DNA of 32,000 nt, from positions 300,001 through 332,000 of the forward strand of contig JAUYHT010000006.1 in NCBI GenBank assembly GCA_030688545.1, in the 5' to 3' direction. The position numbers and the translations under genes are program-made. This document shows positions 3,269 to 30,442 of this stretch, piece by piece. Below the pieces are notes generated by a model, which saw only the letters and a list, made by a program, of their open reading frames with translations, had not been told where the DNA came from and did no database searches. How positions within the stretch are numbered: position 1 is the stretch's first letter; every line of letters starts with the position of its first letter. The stretch is from Candidatus Iainarchaeum sp. Lineage in GTDB: Archaea > Iainarchaeota > Iainarchaeia > Iainarchaeales > VGJJ01.

Positions 3269-3319
3269 TTTTTTCACCTGATAATATTCTTTTCTTTTTT
3301 TGGCCACCGGGAAATTAGA

Positions 3320-3398
3320 AAAAGGTTGGCGAAAACCTTTTAGCCGGGAGGTTTCCGAGAAACCTCCCCATGTCCAAACGCCCAAATGGAATTTGGGC
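3320..3398 (-). other. three consecutive perfect stem-loops in the tRNA-Leu / rpl18e spacer
   Basis: On the minus strand: GCCCAAAT-TCC-ATTTGGGC (3398-3380), GGGAGGTTTC-TCG-GAAACCTCCC (3368-3346) and AAAAGGTT-TTCGCC-AACCTTTT (3341-3320). The last runs into a T5 tract. Confidence 0.6.
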
Positions 3399-3399
3399 A

Positions 3400-3483
3400 T
3401 GCACGGGGGAGGATTCGAACCTCCGAAGGCACTAAGCCACCAGATCTTAAGTCTGGCCCCTTTGACCGCTCGGGAACCCGTGC
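3400..3483 (-). tRNA. tRNA-Leu (anticodon UAA), class II with a long variable arm
   Basis: The reverse complement folds as a cloverleaf: acceptor GCACGGG/CCCGTGC, D arm CCC-GAGCGGTCAAA-GGG, anticodon arm CCAGA-CTTAAGA-TCTGG, variable arm with GGC/GCC stem, T arm GGAGG-TTCGAAT-CCTCC, discriminator A. No CCA is encoded. Confidence 0.92.
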
Positions 3484-3485
3484 CA

Positions 3486-3592
3486 CAAACTTTTTGGGAA
3501 AAAGTTTGATCAAAAACCTTTCCTCTTGAAAAAAGTTTGATCAAAAAACCCTTTCCTTTTGGAAAAAGGCTTAATCAAACAAACTTTTCATT
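3486..3592. repeat. hairpin plus three ~31-33-bp tandem repeats (core AAAAAGTTTGATCAAAAA), locus 1
   Basis: 10-bp inverted repeat CAAACTTTTT-GGG-AAAAAGTTTG (3486-3508). Units are at 3497-3527, 3528-3560 and 3561-3592 (the last degenerate). The GATC of the first unit lies about 26 nt upstream of the tRNA-Leu 5' end. Confidence 0.85.
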
Positions 3593-3727
3593 GTGGAATA
3601 ATCCCGAAGAATTGGCTATCCCCCCGTTTTCTTTTTGGGAAATCTGGGGGGTCAAAACCGCTTCCATCTAGGAAAATGGCTCCGAATCGGTTAAAAGGCG
3701 CTAGGGGCAGTGGGTGCCTCTGGCTGG

Positions 3728-4501
3728 TCACAATCCATCTTTCACCCGGTCGGCGAAGTCTTTTGCTTTGCTTTCCATAATCGAAATGGCCTCTTCTACG
3801 AGCTGCCTGGTTGAGAGGGCCCCGGTTCCTTCCATCGTCATGACGAACCCGCTTTCATCTGGGTCGACTTGGATGATTCCCGCGCCACCCACTTCCTCGC
3901 AATGCCCGCAGAGGGTGCAGTCGCTCGGTTCCGTGATGCTGATCTTCTTTCCTTTCATTTCAATGATGTTCACGGGACAGCTCTTCACCAGCTTTTCTCC
4001 CATTTCGGGGGAAATATTCTCATTAATCGTGAATAGGGGTAACATGCGGTAGCCCACGATGGCGGGTTGGTATTTGACATGATCCTTCCCCACCCCCACG
4101 ACGCATTCCCCTTCCAGCCGAATGTGTTGATCGGCTTTGAGCTTAGCCAGGGGAATCTTTTTGTCCAGGACTTGGATTCCCTCATCCAGGATCTTGATGT
4201 CCCCGCTGTACACCGTGCAGGGTCCTTCTGCTTCAAGGGTCATTTTCACTTTGTCTCCCAGTTTGTAGGATTTGGGATCCATGGAAATAGGAACCAGTCC
4301 CAATCGGTGTCCTATGAATTCGTCGAATAACACCCCATTGTTTTCATAGATACTCAGTTCCTCAATGGCGAGCGTAGGTACTTCAGACATGATGATGCGG
4401 CGCAAGGCGTTCATCGTCGCCAGATTTGTCCCTTTGACCAGGAGTTGGGTTCGGCTCCCTTTCTCCGACAAAACTTTTATCACGTTTCTCGCCATGTTCA
4501 T
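3728..4501 (-). CDS. rpoD: DNA-directed RNA polymerase subunit D (Rpo3) with ferredoxin-like Cys cluster
   Basis: NALRRIIMSEVPTLAIE, GHRLGLVPI and CPVN...C-x2-C-x2-C (DCTLCGHCEEV). An alternative ATG at 4495 has a better-spaced GAGGG. Confidence 0.93.
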   Translation of the reverse strand: MNMARNVIKVLSEKGSRTQLLVKGTNLATMNALRRIIMSEVPTLAIEELSIYENNGVLFDEFIGHRLGLVPISMDPKSYKLGDKVKMTLEAEGPCTVYSGDIKILDEGIQVLDKKIPLAKLKADQHIRLEGECVVGVGKDHVKYQPAIVGYRMLPLFTINENISPEMGEKLVKSCPVNIIEMKGKKISITEPSDCTLCGHCEEVGGAGIIQVDPDESGFVMTMEGTGALSTRQLVEEAISIMESKAKDFADRVKDGL

Positions 4502-4507
4502 TCCCTC

Positions 4508-4897
4508 TTAGACCTTTTTGCTCCGGTGTTTTTTCTTCTTGCGTGTCCCATCATGGGGAACAGGGGTTACATTCTCGATGGAAATAATCCGCATCCCATT
4601 CCGTGTCAAGCTCCGGATGGCGGCTTCGGCTCCCTGCCCGGGATTGCGGGGTCGGATGCCCCCTTTCGCGCGCACTCTCACGTGGACTTGGTCGATGCCT
4701 TTTTCCCGTGCTTTCTGCGCGATGGTTTCGGCGATCTTCATGGCGGCATAAGGGCTTCCTTCTTTGTGTTGGGTCTTGATAACCACTCCCCCTGAGCACT
4801 TGGCAAGGGTTTCCGCTCCCGTCACATCGGTGAGGAGCATAATCGTATTGTTGTGCGTCGCGAACACGTGGATCAGTCCTATTTTGTCGTTGGCCAT
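4508..4897 (-). CDS. rps11: 30S ribosomal protein uS11
   Basis: GLIHVFATHNNTIMLLTDVTGAETLAKCSGG, plus the C-terminal TPVPHDGTRKKK. Confidence 0.95.
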   Translation of the reverse strand: MANDKIGLIHVFATHNNTIMLLTDVTGAETLAKCSGGVVIKTQHKEGSPYAAMKIAETIAQKAREKGIDQVHVRVRAKGGIRPRNPGQGAEAAIRSLTRNGMRIISIENVTPVPHDGTRKKKKHRSKKV

Positions 4898-4903
4898 GGG
4901 GGT

Positions 4904-5545
4904 TCACTTCCCTTCCTCGGTGGCGTCGGCTGCTTCGGGAGATACAGGAGCTTCTCCTTCTTCTCCGACTAATGGGGTTTCAACCCCTTGGGGTTCGCCG
5001 CGGGCTTCCGCGAATTCATTCTCCAATTGTTTCCGGTCCTTCTCTTTCCCATCCGGGGATAGGAGAATCATGGGCTTCCCATAGTAGGCCAGGGCGACCT
5101 CTTCATCCTTGGTTACAACATAGGAGGGAATCGTCACTTTCTTTCCATTCAGGGAAATGTGTCCATGCGTGATGAATTGGCGGGCTTGTTTGGAGGTGTT
5201 GGCCAGGCGCTTGCGCCACACCACGGTTTGGAGGCGTCGTTCGAGGAAGCTGTCAACCGTGAGGGAGAGCACATCATTGAGCGTGGGTTTTCCCCGCATG
5301 ATGCCCAGTTTAATCATGTTGTCTAAAAGTTCTTTCTCCCGGGCCGGTCGTTCTTCTAGAGGGAGGGCCAGCACCGCTTTGGCGTTGGCGCGTTTCTTCC
5401 GTAATATGGCTTCGACCCGTCGGAGTTCTCGCTTATTGGTCAAGCCGTAGGAATCGACCATCTGTCGCTCGTGTTCCAGAATTTTCCGGTCCCACGGTTT
5501 CTTGGGGCTCCCATATTTCTTTTTCAAGTGTCGCGGATCACCCAT
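4904..5545 (-). CDS. rps4: 30S ribosomal protein uS4 with acidic C-terminal extension
   Basis: MGDPRHLKKKYGSPKKPWDR...YGLTNKRELRRVE, then an S4 domain, followed by about 35 extra E/G/A-rich residues. Confidence 0.93.
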   Translation of the reverse strand: MGDPRHLKKKYGSPKKPWDRKILEHERQMVDSYGLTNKRELRRVEAILRKKRANAKAVLALPLEERPAREKELLDNMIKLGIMRGKPTLNDVLSLTVDSFLERRLQTVVWRKRLANTSKQARQFITHGHISLNGKKVTIPSYVVTKDEEVALAYYGKPMILLSPDGKEKDRKQLENEFAEARGEPQGVETPLVGEEGEAPVSPEAADATEEGK

Positions 5546-5551
5546 AAAATA

Positions 5552-6037
5552 TCACTTCTTCTCTCCCTTCGTGGCGGGAGCCTCTTTCTTCTTATCCACA
5601 CCCACCGAGGCGCCTCGTTTTCGTCCACTCGTCTTGGTGCGTTGCCCGCGTACGGTTAGTCCGAGGGAGTGTCGCACGCCTTTGTAGGAGTGCAATTTCT
5701 TCATCGTCTGCAAATCATTCCGGATGGCGAAATCCAGGTCGTTCATGACGAGATGGCCATCTTTTCCGGCAATGGCTTGGCGGCGATTAACAGCCCACAG
5801 GGGCACCTGATGGAGCAGTGGGTTCAGCACGATCTGTTCGAGGTGGGCATCCATGTCTTCTGGGAGTTCCCCGATCTTAGTCAAGTGGGATACGTGGTGC
5901 ACCCGTTCGAATTCATAAGCGAGGATGCGTGCCATGCGCGTGCCGATCCCCTTGATCTCGGCGAGGGCGTGATAAATAGGTTTGTTCCCATTCAAGTCGC
6001 GTCCGGCGATACGCACGATATATCGGTTCTCAGCCAT
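5552..6037 (-). CDS. rps13: 30S ribosomal protein uS13
   Basis: YIVRIAGRDLNGNKPIYHALAEIKGIGTRMA and KGVRHSLGLTVRGQRTKT. Confidence 0.95.
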   Translation of the reverse strand: MAENRYIVRIAGRDLNGNKPIYHALAEIKGIGTRMARILAYEFERVHHVSHLTKIGELPEDMDAHLEQIVLNPLLHQVPLWAVNRRQAIAGKDGHLVMNDLDFAIRNDLQTMKKLHSYKGVRHSLGLTVRGQRTKTSGRKRGASVGVDKKKEAPATKGEKK

Positions 6038-22315: not shown

Positions 22316-24517
22316 TTACTTCTTCCGCGGCGCCACCCATACTTCATCGGGCCATTCCTCTTCGGTGACGCGGGGGGCCCAGGCTTGTGCGGGAAAAAAC
22401 CGGGAGCGGATCCAGAACCAGGCTCCCGCAAGGATGAGGAGCACTAATATTCCCAACCAAAAACCCCTGGCGCCGCTCACGAATGCAGTGGCTTGCGCCA
22501 CGGAGTTGGTGCTGGGCTTCAGGATGAGGGTGTGCGGCGCGGATTGGGTGGCGAATCCCACGAATTGGATAGGGATATTCCGCGGTTGCATCAACCAGGC
22601 GTCGGGCGAAATGGTATAGGTCACCCGTTTGGTTTCCATGGGAGCCAATGCAATGGGGGTTTCCCCTTCTATTTTCCAACCAGTGGGAACCGTGATCAGG
22701 ATATTCCCTTCATGAGACTGATTGGTCGTATTTTGGATGAGCACATCCACCGTGTACGCGTTGCGCGTCACGGGTTCCTCCACCACTTCCGGGGTGATGC
22801 GCACCTTTTCCTCGAATACGATGTTATACATGTGCGTCACGATGTACCCCTCGCTCGCCACCTGCAGAATGAGTTGGCTCCCATTCTGCAAAAGGGACAC
22901 CGGAAGAAGGATAATAGGTTCATCAAATCCCCCCACGCGAACGATTTTTTCGAATGTCTGGCCGGTAGGTTTCACGGTTAGTGTGAGAGTGGCATCGTGG
23001 GAATAGAAGCTCGTGTTCATCAGAGGAATGGCGAATGTGGATGCGTTTCCGATGACAATTTCGGATGGGGGGTTATTCAATTGGATGGGAGCTTGCGTGA
23101 CGCTCGAGAAGAACAATGGGCGATCTTCCCCCTCCAAAGCGCATCCTTCGATGAGGGGTTGAAGATGAAGAGTATTCACTTGGGAATTGGTCTCGACGCG
23201 TACCGCGTGAATGACGTGGGAAAGGGGGGGTACAGCGATGACAGATGGGATGATGATTCCGTCTTCCAGGGTTAGCGCGACGCGAGCCGTTTGAGTGAGA
23301 GGGTTTATCAGTTCGATGGGGATGGTTTGCCCTTCCTTCACTAATCCCCCATCGAGAATGATCTTGAAGTCGGCGCATTGTTCCCCTTGTGTCCCATGGA
23401 AAGTGAATGGGATGCGCATGTTGGGAATGGCGCACGCCGTGGTATCGGTGAAATGTCCTTGGATGGTGATGAACGCACTCCCGTCGAATGACACATCATT
23501 CCTGAATCCGGTGGATTGCAGGGAGAATTCCCCAGTCTTAGTTGAGCGAATGGTTTGGGGAGTGGCCAACAGGGAATAGTCAAGTTGGTAATTGACATCC
23601 TGTATCTGGAAGTGGTCCACATGGAAGGTTTGATCGGAGTTGTTCTGCAAGAATAGGGAATGGGTATTGTTTTCTCCTGCGCGCACGTCGAAATGGGCGG
23701 GTAGCACACGCAGTTCGGTGCAGGCGAAGACATTGGTGAATGTGTTTTCCACTGTCACCTCGAATGCCCCGTCGATGTCCCCGAATGAACAGTCCTGGCC
23801 ATTTGAAAAAGCCCCTCGGGTTTCCAGGAATACATGATCCACGACATCCTCGCTTACCCGTTGCGTGCGGATTTCAATGCGCACGGGTTGGCGAGTATGC
23901 CGCGGGATGCTTTTTATAAAATCCGCATCATTGAATCCGGGGTTCAATCGCGTGCTGAACTCGGGAGAATCATCAAAGACATTGAATCCTTGCAGGGTGA
24001 AATCCTCAGAGGAATCGTTGCGCAGGAAAACCGTGTGGATGATTGTGACATCCTCGGCCACCGAAACATCCGTGGTCTCGAATGAAATGGCTTTGCATAC
24101 GTCCGCCGAATCCTGGATAGTGACATCGATGGTGAAAGTGAGGTCAGCCAATGAACAAGAAGGGGTATTGTCGAATGCCCCCCGCAGGGAAACGTTGAAT
24201 GAGGTGGTTTGGTCTCCATTCACATCTTGAGTAGTGTATCGTAGGACCAGGTTCCCACTCCCATTTTCCTGGATCTCGTCGGGAAACGAATCTACCGTGA
24301 TATCAATTCGCGAATCATCCTCTTCCACCCGGACATCATCCAAATCAAAGGAATCATTCCCCTCATTCTCAATCCGAAGGGTCAGCACACGATTAATCCT
24401 GCTTTCGGATAAAACAACCGAATCAGGAGTGACGGTGATGTCATTGCAGGTGGCGGCAAAGGCCGGGGTGGCCAGCAAGAACAAACAAACTCCCAATATG
24501 CCTAGGAAACGGCGCAT
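22316..24517 (-). CDS. large surface protein: signal peptide, four Cys-bracketed beta modules, Cys-free beta modules including a CARDB/NEW3-like one, C-terminal TM anchor
   Basis: Signal peptide MRRFLGILGVCLFLLATPAFA/AT. Cys pairs are at track-ORF residues 31/128, 148/250, 273/369 and 388/466. There is a recurring RGAF(D/S)N..C(S)(L/F)(A/G)D module end. About 11 N-x-S/T sequons. NAYTVDVLIQNTTNQSHEGNILITVPTGWKI resembles NEW3/CARDB. TM segment is GFWLGILVLLILAGAWFWI. The track start at 24538 is GTG. The first ATG at 24517 lies about 27 nt downstream of a TATA-like ATATTTAAAGG. Confidence 0.8.
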   Translation of the reverse strand: MRRFLGILGVCLFLLATPAFAATCNDITVTPDSVVLSESRINRVLTLRIENEGNDSFDLDDVRVEEDDSRIDITVDSFPDEIQENGSGNLVLRYTTQDVNGDQTTSFNVSLRGAFDNTPSCSLADLTFTIDVTIQDSADVCKAISFETTDVSVAEDVTIIHTVFLRNDSSEDFTLQGFNVFDDSPEFSTRLNPGFNDADFIKSIPRHTRQPVRIEIRTQRVSEDVVDHVFLETRGAFSNGQDCSFGDIDGAFEVTVENTFTNVFACTELRVLPAHFDVRAGENNTHSLFLQNNSDQTFHVDHFQIQDVNYQLDYSLLATPQTIRSTKTGEFSLQSTGFRNDVSFDGSAFITIQGHFTDTTACAIPNMRIPFTFHGTQGEQCADFKIILDGGLVKEGQTIPIELINPLTQTARVALTLEDGIIIPSVIAVPPLSHVIHAVRVETNSQVNTLHLQPLIEGCALEGEDRPLFFSSVTQAPIQLNNPPSEIVIGNASTFAIPLMNTSFYSHDATLTLTVKPTGQTFEKIVRVGGFDEPIILLPVSLLQNGSQLILQVASEGYIVTHMYNIVFEEKVRITPEVVEEPVTRNAYTVDVLIQNTTNQSHEGNILITVPTGWKIEGETPIALAPMETKRVTYTISPDAWLMQPRNIPIQFVGFATQSAPHTLILKPSTNSVAQATAFVSGARGFWLGILVLLILAGAWFWIRSRFFPAQAWAPRVTEEEWPDEVWVAPRKK

Positions 24518-24537: not shown

Positions 24538-24548
24538 CCTTTAAATAT
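24538..24548 (-). promoter_or_regulatory. TATA-like box (ATATTTAAAGG on the minus strand) upstream of the surface-protein gene
   Basis: Centred about 27 nt upstream of ATG 24517, which fits a leaderless or near-leaderless transcript. Confidence 0.35.
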
Positions 24549-24575
24549 CATTACTTTAACCCGTGAATCAGTTAC

Positions 24576-24683
24576 TCGAACTTTTTAGGAAAAAGTTCGA
24601 TCAAAAAACGACTATTTTAAAGAAAAAATCAATCCAAAAACGACTATTTCTAAGAAAAAAAGGTCAATCAAAAACGACCAGCT
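24576..24683. repeat. hairpin plus three 32-bp tandem repeats (core AAAAAGTTCGATCAAAAA), locus 2
   Basis: 11-bp inverted repeat TCGAACTTTTT-AGG-AAAAAGTTCGA (24576-24600). Units are at 24588-24619, 24620-24651 and 24652-24683. The last unit overlaps the TAG stop of the Pro-rich gene. The architecture is the same as at 3486-3592. Confidence 0.85.
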
Positions 24684-26586
24684 ATGGGCCGTGCTCTTCC
24701 TCAATCATTTTCTTCAATCGACGTAATATTTCTTTTTTGGGGTCGTCGACTGGTTCCTCCGGCACGGCTTGGGCCACTTGTTTTTCCTGTCGAGTGAGGG
24801 TTTGATTCAGGGCATCTATTGAAGCCTGCTCCTTCTCCTCCTGCTCGTGTTCCTTCTCTTTCTGTTCAAGATATGCCCAGTCCGCGGGGGTGAGATTTTC
24901 CTGATCCTCTTCGTCCGCTTGGGAAGGGATTTGGGTTTCCTTTGGTTGAAGAGGAGAGAGTGGAGATTTGGTTTCGGGAGGCGCGGAAGAAATGGGTCGT
25001 GGTTCGTCATCCATTCCTTTGGGGGCCAGGGGAGGTATCGCCACTTCTCCGGATTCCTTATTCGGGCGCGCGGGAGGAGGGGTAATTTCGGGGGTGTTTA
25101 ACCTTTCTCGGGGGACCGACCAGGGAGGAACATAGGGGCGGGGGCCACGCGGGGCTGATTCGAGAGGAGTATGAGACGGATCTCGAAGCCCCTTGGGTTG
25201 AATTGGGAATTTTTCTTGGGAGCTATCCATTTCGGATTTGTATGGCAATGGAGCTGTTTCCGGGACAGGAGGATTGGGGGCTATCGTGGGCGCCTCTTCT
25301 TGGCGTTGGGCATCGATGTGTTGCAAATAGGATGTTGGTTTTGCTTGACCTGTTTCCATGTTGGGTGTCACTGTTTGAGGGACTGGCGAATTCCCTTCGT
25401 TTCGCGTGGATGGGGTGTTTTCCACCCTCCTCCCCGATGGGGGAAACGTTTCCTGCGTCGGAAGGTGTGCCTCTTTCAAAGGGGGTGGGGCCATGGGGTC
25501 CGTCCTTTTTTCAGGGGAAACCGATATTTTTTCTTCACGGGGACGCGGTATTTCGACTTGGAGGGAGGGGATGTCAGCGTACTTTTTTCCCTCTTCTTGC
25601 ATTTCATAGGGAGTGGGATTCCCCTGCGGGGCGATGATGGGTTCCGCCGATCCGAATCCTTCCCACTTGGACGTATTATTGGTCGTCGTCCCCCGCGCAT
25701 CCTTTTTCCAAGGTGGAGCAAAAGATGGGGGTGCGGCGTCTTTCCCAGGAAGTGAACGAATATCCTTGGATGGGGTAACCACCTGGTTGGTTGATGGTGG
25801 TTTCAAATGTGGAGACGCCGGGGCTGAGGGTGGGGGAAAGGGTGATGTAAAAGAAGGAGGGGTCGTGGGGGTGGGGGTGGGAATCCCAACCCTCGTCGGT
25901 TGCAACACGATATCTTTTTCGGTGCTCGGAGGCATCGGTGCACGTTCGGGGATGATCGGCACAGAGGATGAGGGAGTAGAAGAAAGGGGGAAATCCTTTT
26001 TTTGTCCAGGAAGGATGGCTCGGGTTGGGCTGACGGTTCCTCGTGGGGCCATTTCCTGTTTGGGTCGCATGAAGGGGAGCATTTGGGCGAATGTGAATGG
26101 TTTTTTGGGTGGCGTGTTTAATGGCTTTGGATTCGATGCGATGGCGCGTTGGAGGGGGGTGGGCGGCTGTGCAGGTATAGTCGGCAATGGAGAAGCAGGG
26201 AGGAGAGATGGTCCCTGCGTCCGAATGGGAGAATAGAGTGGCGCATTTCCCGGTGATAAATTTTTTTGGGTCGATGAGAGACGGGGGGAAATGGACATGT
26301 TCTTGTTGGCGAATGGGCGCGCAGGAGTTATCGTTCCATGGGCACTCCCCTGCATCATGGTGGCTAACTGCTGGCGCATTTGACCTTGGGCGTTGGAGCT
26401 GGCGCGCGTGGGTTGGGAGGTAATCAAGGGTTGTCGTCTGGGTTTTGGTTTTCCGAATATCGCTTGGGCAACGCGCTGTCCCAATCCGGGTTGCGGTAAT
26501 TTGGGAACGAGTTCTCCGTGGGAAATCTTTTCCCGACGTTGCTTGAGGAATTCGTCGATCTCATCCACATCCTCTGAAACGGGCAT
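24682..26586 (-). CDS. proline-rich, low-complexity (probably intrinsically disordered) protein, 634 aa, no signal peptide or TM
   Basis: A 1.9-kb open frame with an ATG start about 25 nt downstream of TTTTTTATAG. The ends are acidic and helical-looking (N: EDVDEIDEFLKQRREK; C: EQKEKEHEQEEKEQASIDALNQTLTRQEK...LRRLKKMIEEEHGP). They flank about 550 aa of P/T/S/Q-rich sequence. Confidence 0.75.
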   Translation of the reverse strand: MPVSEDVDEIDEFLKQRREKISHGELVPKLPQPGLGQRVAQAIFGKPKPRRQPLITSQPTRASSNAQGQMRQQLATMMQGSAHGTITPARPFANKNMSISPRLSSTQKNLSPGNAPLYSPIRTQGPSLLPASPLPTIPAQPPTPLQRAIASNPKPLNTPPKKPFTFAQMLPFMRPKQEMAPRGTVSPTRAILPGQKKDFPLSSTPSSSVPIIPERAPMPPSTEKDIVLQPTRVGIPTPTPTTPPSFTSPFPPPSAPASPHLKPPSTNQVVTPSKDIRSLPGKDAAPPSFAPPWKKDARGTTTNNTSKWEGFGSAEPIIAPQGNPTPYEMQEEGKKYADIPSLQVEIPRPREEKISVSPEKRTDPMAPPPLKEAHLPTQETFPPSGRRVENTPSTRNEGNSPVPQTVTPNMETGQAKPTSYLQHIDAQRQEEAPTIAPNPPVPETAPLPYKSEMDSSQEKFPIQPKGLRDPSHTPLESAPRGPRPYVPPWSVPRERLNTPEITPPPARPNKESGEVAIPPLAPKGMDDEPRPISSAPPETKSPLSPLQPKETQIPSQADEEDQENLTPADWAYLEQKEKEHEQEEKEQASIDALNQTLTRQEKQVAQAVPEEPVDDPKKEILRRLKKMIEEEHGP

Positions 26587-26616: not shown

Positions 26617-26794
26617 GAACGCTCATGCGCCAACCAAAAATCCCCAGCGGGATCCCCACGACTCCCAATGCAATCTCGGTAGGATCGGGTTCAGCCGCAT
26701 TCATGAACGGAGGAGCTGTCGATCAAAAGAATTTCTCTTGCGGGAAAAATCAGTCTATTAAAAAAGGGCACCGCCTATTGGAGTAAGTGGTCTC

Positions 26795-27690: not shown

Positions 27691-27775
27691 TTTTTGATCG
27701 AACTTCCGGGTAAAACCAAAAAGGTTTTGCGGGCCTCGCAGAACAACGTTCTGCAAGGTTTTTCAAAAAGTTCGT
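27691..27775. repeat. rearranged partial copy of the GATCAAAAA element with two internal hairpins, locus 3
   Basis: TTTTTGATCGAACTT (27691-27705, inverted orientation) ... CAAAAAGTTCG (27764-27774). In between are AAAACC-AAAAA-GGTTTT (27712-27728) and GCAGAAC-AAC-GTTCTGC (27738-27754). It lies immediately downstream of the stop at 27777. Confidence 0.6.
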
Positions 27776-27776
27776 T

Positions 27777-28712
27777 TTACTTGCGGCGCTGCGAATAGGC
27801 CAACAGCAATCCCGCGAGGACAAGGACGATTCCCAGTCCAATCACAGGATTGGTAATGAAACCCAAGAGTCCGGTGGCGGGCGAACCAGCATTCGGGACC
27901 TCGTTCGCGATGGGTAAAATACTCCCGCGCGGAATGCCCGCTTCGCCCAATGCGATTTCTGTGGGATTGGGTTCCACCGTGTTCACGAACGTGGGGGCTG
28001 ATGTCAAGGGGGTATTCGTTCCATCTCCTGACGCGGGTGGGGACAAAGAAAGATTGTTCCCTTGCCATAAAGGATTGAATGAGAACAGGGGCACAGGGCC
28101 GCTTGATCCATCGTCATCATCATCCGTGGACGATTGCGTGCTGGGGCCTTCACAATTATCCCCTTCGCAGATCGTGGGATTAGTGTTCTGCCCATTCGTC
28201 GGAGTGCATCCGATGGTGCCGACGGCGCAGGGCGCTGGCTGGCAATTAATGGTTCCCTCTACTGGACAGGGGTCCTTGGGAGGGCAATTGGAATCGCCGT
28301 TTAACTCACAAGGATTAGGTTGATTGCAATCCGGTTCATTCACCGGACATGGATCCGTTACTTCTTTATCGCGTATCCGGCGGCCGCTAGAGCCAGGTCC
28401 GCTGGGTCCTTGAGGCGCGGGGGCCGCATCGATGCTCTGGGCCGATGTATTTCCTGTAGAAGGTGAAGATGATTCGGTGTTACTGGCAGGTGGCGCGGGT
28501 GCGGAATTGTTTCCCCCATCATTGCTTGAGGTTGTGCGCGTTGATTCATTTGTTGGCGTGGTGGGTGCCGGAGCCGATTCCGTGGCACCGGTGCCTGAAG
28601 ATCCCGAATCATTTGTCGTCGCCGGAGCGTCGGGCGCGCTGTCGGCGAATCCAAAGGGTGACAGCATCAGGCTCATCACGATGAGGACCATTCCCAGTTT
28701 CATTCCGTTCAT
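27777..28712 (-). CDS. secreted S/T/P-rich protein with a 10-Cys module, poly-Asp tract and C-terminal hydrophobic anchor plus basic tail
   Basis: Signal peptide MNGMKLGMVLIVMSLMLSPFGFA/DS. The Cys module is C-x6-C-x5-C-x7-C-x5-C-x7-C-x4-C-x6-C-x12-C-x4-C (nt 28152-28349). There is a DDDDDG tract. C-terminus is GSPATGLLGFITNPVIGLGIVLVLAGLLLAYSQRRK. The first ATG at 28712 is preceded by GGAAGGAG. The track start at 28718 is TTG. Confidence 0.75.
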   Translation of the reverse strand: MNGMKLGMVLIVMSLMLSPFGFADSAPDAPATTNDSGSSGTGATESAPAPTTPTNESTRTTSSNDGGNNSAPAPPASNTESSSPSTGNTSAQSIDAAPAPQGPSGPGSSGRRIRDKEVTDPCPVNEPDCNQPNPCELNGDSNCPPKDPCPVEGTINCQPAPCAVGTIGCTPTNGQNTNPTICEGDNCEGPSTQSSTDDDDDGSSGPVPLFSFNPLWQGNNLSLSPPASGDGTNTPLTSAPTFVNTVEPNPTEIALGEAGIPRGSILPIANEVPNAGSPATGLLGFITNPVIGLGIVLVLAGLLLAYSQRRK

Positions 28713-28818
28713 TCTCAATCAGCTCCTTCCAATTAGATGATGGTGATTTCAATCTTTTAATGTATACGTTTTAAATGAAATTGCGTTAACGACCTCAATT
28801 CATACGGCGATTGTAGAA

Positions 28819-30411: not shown

Positions 30412-30442
30412 AAAAAAGGAAAAAGGGGGGATAGCCCCCCCC
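30412..30442 (-). terminator. intrinsic-terminator-like G/C hairpin followed by T tracts
   Basis: Minus strand reads GGGGGG(GG)-CTAT-CCCCCC followed by TTTTTCCTTTTTT. It starts 8 nt after the stop of the 113-aa gene. Confidence 0.55.

Follow-up and report, generated by a model that had tools for sequence, protein, structure and literature searches.

A tandemly repeated A/T hairpin cassette in a Candidatus Iainarchaeum genome: a candidate archaeal promoter-terminator element

Two intergenic arrays and their gene neighborhood

The subject of this analysis is a short composite repeat, here termed the cassette, in a stretch of 32,000 nucleotides (nt) from Candidatus Iainarchaeum sp. (GenBank assembly GCA_030688545.1, contig JAUYHT010000006.1, positions 300,001 to 332,000), referred to as the window. 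It forms two tandem arrays (locus 1 and locus 2), each closed by a perfect A/T hairpin. The flanking genes are archaeal according to Pfam (RpoD with Rpb3-type domains, L13, S2, L3), and RpoD and EF-1alpha are 100% identical to proteins from a metagenome-assembled genome (MAG) of a 'Candidatus Diapherotrites archaeon' (DPANN). Nearly all genes of the window are encoded on the minus strand. Because this holds for all genes relevant here, both arrays are located after the stop codon of one gene and before the start of the next.

Locus 1 (3486-3598, minus strand) is located between rpoD, which codes for RNA polymerase subunit D (3728-4501, minus strand; Pfam RNA_pol_L and RNA_pol_A_bac), and the gene for tRNA-Leu(UAA) (3400-3483, minus strand; ARAGORN; Rfam RF00005, 55.5 bits). 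rpoD is the last gene of the S13-S4-S11-rpoD block, and its stop codon is 130 nt upstream of the array. A previous reading of the window, made from the letters alone (the sequence-only reading), had placed the element between these two genes. This is correct, except that the tRNA gene had to be assigned to the minus strand; in the direction of transcription, locus 1 thus follows rpoD and precedes the tRNA. The hairpin has its arms at 3486-3495 and 3499-3508 and a GGG loop (minus strand: CAAACTTTTT-CCC-AAAAAGTTTG). It forms a stable stem in RNA as well as DNA folds, and its last base is 3 nt before the mature 5' end of tRNA-Leu. The tandem array (3492-3598, minus strand) consists of three units of about 32 nt (3492-3523, 3523-3554 and 3557-3588). 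On the minus strand, a unit is composed of a T-tract, the purine-rich GGAAAGG and then TTTTTGATCAAAC. Tandem Repeats Finder reports the same region (3492-3598) with a period of 34, 3.2 copies and 80% matches. The proximal GATC box, TTTTTGAT, is found at 3509-3516 (minus strand), which corresponds to positions -30 to -23 relative to 3486.

Locus 2 has the same architecture. Its hairpin (24576-24600; arms 24576-24586 and 24590-24600; minus strand: TCGAACTTTTT-AGG-AAAAAGTTCGA) is also perfect and has a C-G pair in place of a T-A pair of locus 1, which is a compensated change. The array (24583-24683, minus strand) consists of the units 24583-24614, 24615-24646 and 24649-24680; it was reported by Tandem Repeats Finder as 24590-24678 with a period of 32, 2.7 copies and 82% matches. 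The stop codon of a gene coding for a protein of 634 amino acids (aa) (24682-26586) marks its beginning, and it is followed by the gene for a surface protein of 733/740 aa with a signal peptide (FixG_C; N-terminus MRRFLGILGVCLFLLATPAFA). A canonical TATA box, TATTTAAA (24540-24547, minus strand), is centred 26.5 nt before the ATG (24515-24517) of the surface-protein gene. This gene therefore has a promoter of its own downstream of the cassette, of a type that implies a leaderless mRNA, and the GTG start at 24538 that was listed by the open reading frame (ORF) finder is probably wrong. We also considered that locus 2 is a remnant of a duplicated tRNA 5' end, but the resemblance beyond the hairpin (8 of 13 bases) is too weak.

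The quoted element sequences are present at the coordinates given in the sequence-only reading, and Tandem Repeats Finder together with a repeat family search established that the two arrays with perfect hairpins are real. The repeat search grouped all six units into one family. It aligned 3471-3516 with 24562-24607 (80% over 46 nt), and the units proved to be diverging, with 63-78% identity to the reference unit. The period of the units is 31-34 bp. On the sense strand, the cassette core reads TTTTTGATC(R)AACTTTTTYC-N-AAAAAGTT(Y)G. This conserved core of about 31 nt is composed of the T-run/GATC box and the A/T hairpin, and the GATC box TTTTTGAT covers positions -30 to -23 when counted from the last G of the hairpin. 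In the full cassette, also on the sense (minus) strand, a purine-rich stretch is followed by TTTTTGATC(R)AAC, TTTTT, YCN and AAAAAGTT(Y)G. Within an array, the order on the minus strand is T-tract, purine-rich stretch and TTTTTGATC(R)AAC, and TTTTT-YCN-AAAAAGTT(Y)G at the array end completes the hairpin. The 3' arm of the hairpin corresponds to the beginning of one further unit, truncated at the downstream gene. The 18-mer AAAAAGTTYGATCAAAAA occurs five times in the window when up to 3 mismatches are allowed (0.14 expected), a number that was reached in none of 100 shuffles. For the 9-mer GATCAAAAA, the count of four reported earlier is correct; the expectation of 0.25 is not, since dinucleotide shuffles result in 1.1, and 1 of 100 shuffles reached four.

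Additional copies are less complete or lie outside the window. Locus 3 is a GATC box without hairpin (27691-27708, plus strand; TTTTTGATCGAACTTCCG, 3 mismatches to the 18-mer). Its remainder (27738-27774) comprises a G/C hairpin (GCAGAAC-AAC-GTTCTGC) followed by T5, and a single arm AAAAAGTTCG (27765-27774). This arm abuts the stop codon of the gene at 27777-28718; on the minus strand, CGAACTTTTT directly follows that stop codon. Locus 3 is a decayed or rearranged copy. The sequence-only reading had described an inverted, broken-up copy at 27691-27775, of which the plus-oriented box at 27691-27708 stands and the rest is reduced to the separate arm at 27765-27774. Its half-site at 26721-26729 is at chance level and had to be dropped. 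A fourth copy, TTTTGATCAAACTTTTTCCTAAAAAGTTTG|GAGGAGAAAAATATG, is located immediately upstream of the EF-1alpha gene, about 700 nt past the window end. Contigs of three independent assemblies start inside this copy, a further contig ends inside the hairpin of locus 1, and one of a second MAG ends inside the box of locus 3. A likely reason for these breaks is that the community contains the 31-mer repeatedly, both in single genomes and across different ones. It is a predictable breakpoint of short-read assemblies of these genomes.

Relatives allow a comparison at two of these sites. Three genomes that code for an RpoD with 62-69% identity keep the gene order rpoD, tRNA-Leu and L18e, with a spacer of about 65 nt that lacks the array. 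Their spacers contain a TATA-like TTCTTAATC, CTTATTAAC or TTCTTAAAC whose end is separated from the tRNA by 21-27 nt. For TTTTTGATC in the window, the corresponding distance is 24 nt, so that the proximal GATC box occupies the place of the TATA-like box. An ancestral-like spacer (TTCTT...CCAC...GAAAAGTTTG) is found distal to the array at about 3575-3609, in a by-eye reading with weak resemblance. At the EF-1alpha site, the closest relative has GGTTTTTTGATGAACCTTTTTTCCTAAAAAAGGTTCTGGAGGAG, with the stem GAACC/GGTTC replacing CAAAC/GTTTG. Two other relatives lack the cassette of about 37 nt there and retain the same upstream TATTTAAAC box and the leader. The cassette as a whole has therefore been gained or lost, immediately ahead of the Shine-Dalgarno sequence. 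A conserved segment of about 80 nt upstream of EF-1alpha is found in three relatives (TATTTAAAC...GTATACCGCGCCGGAAAGGGTGGC...CCTTTAGTGCTGGTTAACAAC; L300 223-310, L301 3889-3975 and L302 2889-2975; L numbers designate loci retrieved from other genomes). Two readings are possible for this segment, namely a structured 5' leader and a gene for a small RNA that has a TATA box of its own.

Two observations concern the surroundings of locus 1. A hairpin with A-run, stem and T-run is found at 3315-3340 (AAAAGGTT-TTCGCC-AACCTTTTT), just past tRNA-Leu and two G/C hairpins and before L18e; it is probably the terminator of the tRNA. In addition, a pair of 23-nt inverted repeats (3614-3636 and 30414-30436; GGCTATCCCCCCGTTTTCTTTTT / AAAAGGAAAAAGGGGGGATAGCC) is 91% complementary, and the first copy adjoins locus 1. 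The second is part of a terminator-like site with a G/C hairpin and a T-run (30424-30442, minus strand). This pair is another shared intergenic module.

The sequence-only reading did not recognize the cassette as a described element. This agrees with the literature that was found: no description of the cassette turned up, and a search with sequence strings returned no relevant paper containing it. No Rfam family matched the cassette at gathering score, either in the window or at 12 loci, where only noise with E-values up to 5 was obtained. Several known element types were considered and rejected. The UGAUCA of the element is one base off the C box consensus (RUGAUGA) of C/D box sRNAs, and a CUGA D box is missing. 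CRISPR arrays do not fit, as the units are arranged head to tail without spacers. Type III toxin-antitoxin (ToxI-like) repeats have units of about 34-45 nt and a ToxN/AbiQ-type toxin gene behind them; here, tRNA-Leu and the 740-aa surface protein are encoded downstream, and no ToxN-like domain is present. GGTTTTTGATCA matches the Hin/hix half-site GGTTTTTGATAA at 11 of 12 positions; this resemblance was rejected since conservation of the GG is missing elsewhere, as is an inverted partner at the hix spacing. The LexA Cheo box (CGAAC-N4-GTTCG), the CodY box, the NrpR operator and the IHF consensus were rejected on spacing or sequence.

Distribution of the cassette and position of its copies

The sequence-only reading had proposed a motif scan over related genomes, and the cassette turned out to recur widely. 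A scan of one genome per species with the pattern TTTTTGATCRAACTTTTTYC and a metagenome scan with the archaeal form having a 3-nt loop each returned at least 120 exact matches. The copies are related by descent, so that copy counts do not represent independent events. The second hairpin arm, which is not required by the pattern, is present at about 66 of 80 cellular loci among the matches listed. As a control, the 18-mer was searched in viral contigs; of the 43 matches, almost all of which are coding, one has a second arm. A chance local duplication without wider meaning could account for there being just two full copies in the 32-kb window and for the divergence of their units. It is refuted by the at least 240 exact matches elsewhere in the two collections, by the fourth copy in the same genome and by an architecture with recurrent geometry in unrelated contigs. 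We consider it scarcely credible.

Among the matches listed, the archaeal carriers include Iainarchaeum (3 copies), CAYJRE01, the closest relative of the window (4 copies), Micrarchaeota, Aenigmatarchaeota, Methanosarcinales, ANME-1, Methanovirga and Methanoflexus. For the analysis of gene starts, archaeal-type copies were deduplicated and split into 48 distinct Methanosarcina-like and 95 distinct other archaeal copies. In six of these 95, the 5' end of a tRNA is located between -1 and +4, counted from the final G of the hairpin (tRNA-Ser -1, tRNA-Met and tRNA-Ala 0, tRNA-Val +2, the tRNA-Leu of the window +3, tRNA-His +4). The last base of the hairpin is position 1 of the tRNA in three cases. 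A Shine-Dalgarno sequence with a start codon and an ORF of at least 60 aa follows at 9-23 nt (mode 10-12) for 19 of 86 copies in sense orientation, compared to 2 of 85 in antisense orientation. The purine-rich GGAAAGG, GAGGAAG, GAAAAG or GGGAGG precedes the box in the window and at L183, L195, L225, L233 and L255, and the Y-G step at the hairpin end is invariant among the pattern matches. Thus, a purine stretch resembling the transcription factor B recognition element (BRE) and a pyrimidine(-1)/purine(+1) initiator are found, in the sense of sequence consistency. The multi-unit layout (two to three boxes about 32 nt apart, hairpin, Shine-Dalgarno sequence and ATG) recurs in the unrelated contigs L195, L210, L225 and L254. 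The downstream genes are varied and code for EF-1alpha, L7Ae, a hydrogenase subunit, ferredoxin, ribulose-phosphate 3-epimerase, a pilin-like protein, a regulator, a pentapeptide protein, tRNAs and the surface protein. The idea that all downstream genes are highly expressed was rejected, as the genes for ribulose-phosphate 3-epimerase, ferredoxin, the pentapeptide protein and the regulator are among them.

The Methanosarcina-like copies (within L179-L258, e.g., L196, L197, L200 and L241; also L105 from Methanosarcina sp. UBA289) are located on long contigs with 40-47% G+C, in long arrays of A/T hairpins that also have other stems, e.g., CAAGCCTTTTTT-G-AAAAGGCTTG. Repeats such as GTTGCGCCGCTTGACCACGCC and TTTATCAC boxes are found ahead of these arrays.

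Unexpectedly, the carriers among the matches listed include bacteria (Firmicutes and Desulfobacterota). The isolate Acutalibacter sp. 1XD8-33 has at least 10 copies (L051, L054, L074, L081, L109, L114, L116 and L119). Other bacterial carriers are Ruminococcus and Oscillospiraceae MAGs, Desulfatibacillum alkenivorans DSM 16219 (L129) and Bacillus megaplasmids (L171 3001-3029, Bacillus thuringiensis plasmid CP020005.1). The bacterial composite is TTTTTGATCAAACTTTTTTC-AAAAAGTTTG, with about 30 nt and a 2-nt loop. In Clostridia, the copies are numerous and embedded in mosaics of other short repeats, with GTAAAAG ahead of them and G/C hairpins, whose stems covary, behind. A BLAST search against phages and plasmids resulted only in intergenic matches of Bacillus megaplasmids, with no annotation beneath. 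Beside one Acutalibacter copy, a sub-threshold STAXI match was obtained (L074 825-963; 21 bits, E = 0.026, gathering score 40.5), which does not overlap the core.

The composite is also found in predicted tRNA introns, at position 37/38 of at least six genes (tRNA-Ser three times, tRNA-Gly twice, and others) and in either orientation (L086 817-976; L093 5417-5586; L186; L193; L204/L207; L215; L270). These intron copies are mostly antisense to the tRNA. Those in L186 and L193 are in sense orientation and directly precede the 3' half of the tRNA.

Such a distribution raises the question if the cassette is a selfish miniature palindromic repeat, comparable to repetitive extragenic palindromic sequences (REP), to bacterial interspersed mosaic elements (BIME) or to miniature inverted-repeat transposable elements (MITE), that is tolerated in intergenic DNA and tRNA introns and has promoter or terminator activity only incidentally. 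It is dispersed in many copies beside unrelated housekeeping genes, near-identical copies occur across phyla and domains, and it is present or absent at orthologous sites. Its occurrence in tRNA introns in either orientation, in the short-repeat mosaics of Acutalibacter and at the end of a repeat of about 165 nt in the closest relative is consistent with such an element, as are the assembly breaks at its copies and the preference for convergent over divergent gene contexts (15 versus 5, from crude ORF-based gene calls). However, neither a target-site duplication nor defined ends beyond the hairpin were seen, and no transposase, RAYT (REP-associated tyrosine transposase), TnpA or TnpB (Y1_Tnp, OrfB) was detected among 150 neighboring ORFs, nor is any family enriched there. 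Moreover, a strand-specific fixed spacing to tRNA or Shine-Dalgarno starts (25 of 95 versus 2 of 85) is unexpected for neutral insertions. We regard this explanation as rather unlikely, while noting that it is compatible with a function in transcription, since a mobile promoter would satisfy both. The suggestion in the sequence-only reading that the element is a small mobile or recombinogenic repeat is thus borne out by dispersal, presence/absence and tRNA introns, but not by a mobilizing enzyme or a target-site duplication.

Two specific classes of mobile DNA do not fit. In a MITE, terminal inverted repeats would be expected, but the only inverted repeat is the hairpin itself, and there is no flanking duplication in the window, at L300 as compared to L301/L302 or at the four CAYJRE01 copies. 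Ends of IS200/IS605 insertion sequences (IS) or palindrome-associated transposable elements (PATE) have subterminal hairpins at both ends and a cleavage site 10-20 nt from the hairpin foot, and they depend on TnpA/TnpB. In the cassette, TTGAT is directly adjacent to the hairpin foot, a second matching hairpin is missing, and no Y1_Tnp or OrfB match was obtained among the 150 neighboring ORFs. The repeat of about 165 nt in the closest relative, GCA_964372665.1, consists of AATGACCTCCTCCGTGGCCTAAAGGCCACGG...GAGGTATCAGACC plus the composite and has AATGA at both ends. It occurs in at least four copies (L077; L092 at about 4470-4640; L112 1-165; L118 at about 5410-5575), and in L118, a transposase-like ORF runs into it. 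This repeat may be a MITE or an IS end.

Hairpin pairing and T-tracts

Pairing of the hairpin is well maintained. At the free R/Y positions of the scan matches, 77 pairs are A-T, 16 are G-C and one is mismatched. Another 38 copies with box and hairpin are not covered by the scan patterns; 26 of these have fully paired outer stems, which represent seven different sequences. When partners were shuffled, the mean was 10 of 38 and the maximum 16. Judged from these patterns, the hairpin appears to be under selection. The length of its loop varies from 2 to 5 nt, with about 21 nt in L093. Where R is G, the changed base is compensated in the hairpin partner, and TTTGATCAAA is broken to TTCGATCAAA; this applies to locus 2 and to 16 further copies.

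These data bear on the proposal, also made in the sequence-only reading, that the units are operator sites for a dimeric protein that binds the GATC-centred palindrome. The palindrome is lost at locus 2 and in the 16 copies, and the loop length varies, so this form of the proposal is not supported. In a broader form, the array would bind a regulator or an architectural protein that recognizes the arm AAAAAGTTYG or the GATC box, and the period of about 32 bp would correspond to three helical turns, placing the sites on one face. The measured period of 31-34 bp fits, bases are conserved beyond the known needs of the TATA-binding protein (TBP) and transcription factor B (TFB), and the palindrome overlaps the transcription start predicted below. 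Overlap with the transcription start is the typical position of archaeal repressors. It is also of relevance that, in bacteria, the palindrome of a terminator can at the same time be a site for a transcription factor (bioRxiv 10.64898/2026.08.19.745784). Loops of 2-5 nt, and of 21 nt in L093, are hard to reconcile with a fixed dimer site, the broken GATC palindrome is compensated only in the hairpin partner, no candidate regulator gene is linked to the copies, and the same sequence is found in archaea and bacteria. A binding-site array is therefore considered improbable.

The compensatory stem changes would also fit an element that acts at the RNA level, with the hairpin in a 5' leader transcribed from an upstream promoter and affecting mRNA stability, translation or processing. 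In about 20 copies, the hairpin abuts the Shine-Dalgarno sequence, and a canonical TATTTAAA is found about 90 nt upstream of the EF-1alpha copy of the closest relative. The RNA fold of locus 1 has a z-score of -3.0, but that of locus 2 is only -1.6, and no Rfam family was matched. Two T5-T6 tracts, which are archaeal termination signals, would be inside the leader, and in three tRNAs, the last base of the hairpin is already tRNA position 1. Furthermore, the copies occur in both orientations relative to the flanking genes and also between convergent genes. We assign a low probability to this explanation as well.

The T-tracts are the second conspicuous feature. The sequence-only reading had noticed T5-T7 tracts in every unit, and these were confirmed: on the sense strand, there are five T5-T6 tracts in locus 1 and six T5-T7 tracts in locus 2. 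The antisense strand has one T5 run, in a hairpin arm, which is due to the palindrome. In archaea, oligo-T functions as the intrinsic termination signal. A run of at least five T shortly past a gene end is found at locus 2, where the array begins at the stop codon, and at locus 3 (T5). Three tRNAs encoded on the opposite strand have their 3' ends abutting the hairpin, and one Iainarchaeum copy fills a gap of about 35 nt between convergent genes. In these genomes, hairpins composed of T-run, loop and A-run but with other outer stems also follow genes.

A candidate promoter-terminator cassette and its relation to known elements

Among the options of the sequence-only reading, that of a terminator/promoter cassette is best supported, namely by the position of the box, the geometry relative to tRNAs and Shine-Dalgarno sequences, the TATA-like box of the relatives and the T-tracts. 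With modest confidence, we favor the interpretation that the cassette is a propagated archaeal promoter that also carries T-tract terminators and has been amplified locally by tandem duplication. In archaea, transcription starts about 26 nt downstream of the centre of the TATA box. The proposed TATA-box equivalent is TTTTTGAT at -30 to -23 (the proximal box at 3509-3516 for locus 1), and the purine-rich stretch upstream of it would serve as BRE. The A/T-rich hairpin would be the region to be melted, and the hairpin-closing G would be the transcription start (+1), with a pyrimidine at -1. For tRNA-Leu, the predicted start is the complement of C3486, the last hairpin G. With such a start, the tRNA would have almost no leader. 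The EF-1alpha transcript would be initiated from the fourth copy and have a 12-nt leader with the Shine-Dalgarno sequence. In the same cassette, the T5-T7 runs would stop read-through from the upstream gene.

Applied to the individual loci, locus 1 would be the promoter of tRNA-Leu, insulated from the rpoD transcript; it would probably also be the promoter for the L18e-L13-S9 genes behind tRNA-Leu. Locus 2 is probably mainly a terminator for the gene of the 634-aa protein; the transcript of the surface-protein gene might additionally start further upstream, with a leader of 60 nt. As suggested by the repeat structure, the three-unit arrays would result from tandem duplication of the unit of about 32 nt, and the upstream units would function mainly as extra terminators and possibly as additional TBP/TFB sites. 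The comparison of genomes indicates that the cassette is not private to the source genome but is propagated, and gained or lost at orthologous positions.

Several observations weigh against this interpretation. The function of the cassette is deduced solely from position and conservation. TTTTTGAT contains a G-C pair and differs from the TTTAWATA consensus, and canonical boxes are found ahead of other genes of the window (TATTTAAA at 24540-24547; TTTTTTATA in front of the gene for the 634-aa protein). At locus 2, a canonical TATA box is present between the cassette and the ATG, so that a promoter in the cassette is dispensable there. A gene start does not directly follow about three quarters of the non-Methanosarcina copies, nor any of the 48 Methanosarcina-type copies, and the four copies of the closest relative are directed towards the 3' ends of the genes behind them or towards 23S rRNA. 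Near-identical copies in bacteria cannot be explained by an archaeal promoter function, and the promoter model alone gives no reason for the hairpin in the spacer.

The closest parallel for the promoter side is found in Nanoarchaeum equitans, also from DPANN, with fixed-distance tRNA promoters that have a box A (TTTAAA) 26 nt upstream of the start and T-stretch terminators (PMC3491384). Similarly, the cassette has an A/T-rich 8-bp box centred about 26.5 nt upstream of a pyrimidine/G step, this step is at, or 1-4 nt before, mature tRNA 5' ends, and a purine-rich stretch is directly upstream of the box. Unlike the archaeal core promoter, the box TTTTTGAT(C) has an internal G-C pair rather than TTTAWA, all 31 nt including the spacer are conserved and palindromic, and the element is arranged in tandem and is also found where no gene follows.

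Repeats that carry promoters are known. The class I and II intergenic repeats of halovirus HF2 (58 and 29 bp) have promoter activity according to reporter assays (PMC8707807). They resemble the cassette in being short (29-58 bp), near-identical, A/T-containing repeats upstream of non-homologous genes and in being kept across related genomes. They differ in being viral and assayed; the promoter role of the cassette is a prediction. Promoter reuse and propagation have been described for bacterial 'putative mobile promoters' and for Correia, ERIC and REPIN elements (PMC3575422). The survey of putative mobile promoters, the only one found for such elements, set a minimum of 80% identity across 50 nt or more and reported no family common to Archaea and Bacteria (PMC3575422). 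The concept fits, but loci 1 and 2, with 80% over 46 nt and a core of about 31 nt, are just under this threshold, and the cassette core occurs in both domains. Terminal inverted repeats and TA duplications, which are features of Correia elements, were not seen for the cassette. In bacterial promoter-coupled terminators, sigma-70 promoters are combined with hairpin-plus-U terminators (bioRxiv 10.64898/2026.08.19.745784). The similarity is that one short sequence ends the upstream unit and starts the next, and that palindromes may have a second role; the signals of the cassette, however, would be of archaeal TATA type and oligo-T.

REPs are G/C-rich, species-specific and mobilized by RAYT, and they cluster at gene 3' ends. 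The cassette shares with REP/BIME that dispersed palindromes form tandem clusters with alternating linkers, that gene 3' ends and convergent regions are preferred, and that terminator-like effects are expected. In contrast to REP/BIME, it is A/T-rich, occurs across phyla, has a strand-specific fixed position before gene starts, and is without RAYT among its sampled neighbors. The cassette differs from the known elements in its sequence, the archaeal TATA-type geometry, the very short conserved palindromic core and the spread across phyla and domains.

A more far-reaching version of the promoter-terminator interpretation, which we consider doubtful, is that of a module that is horizontally mobile among DPANN, methanogens and co-resident anaerobic bacteria. 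It would move by an undescribed, hairpin-dependent mechanism and rewire the genes that it precedes, with tRNA introns as safe harbors. If this were true, it would be the first promoter-bearing repeat family common to both prokaryotic domains. The tRNA-intron copies could, in addition, bear on the origin of split or intron-containing tRNA genes in DPANN, and the Methanosarcina-like arrays make up a large, uncharacterized system of intergenic repeats in a methanogen that can be cultured.

Mapped promoters are almost lacking for uncultivated DPANN archaea and methanogens. Should the cassette be a promoter, the rule TTTTTGATC-N21-G would predict transcription starts in these organisms, and several of their tRNAs would, as in Nanoarchaeum, have a very short 5' leader or none. 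Should it also spread between genomes, it would represent a clear archaeal case of promoter reuse. The cassette is, finally, a candidate for a short portable promoter/terminator part in methanogen genetics.

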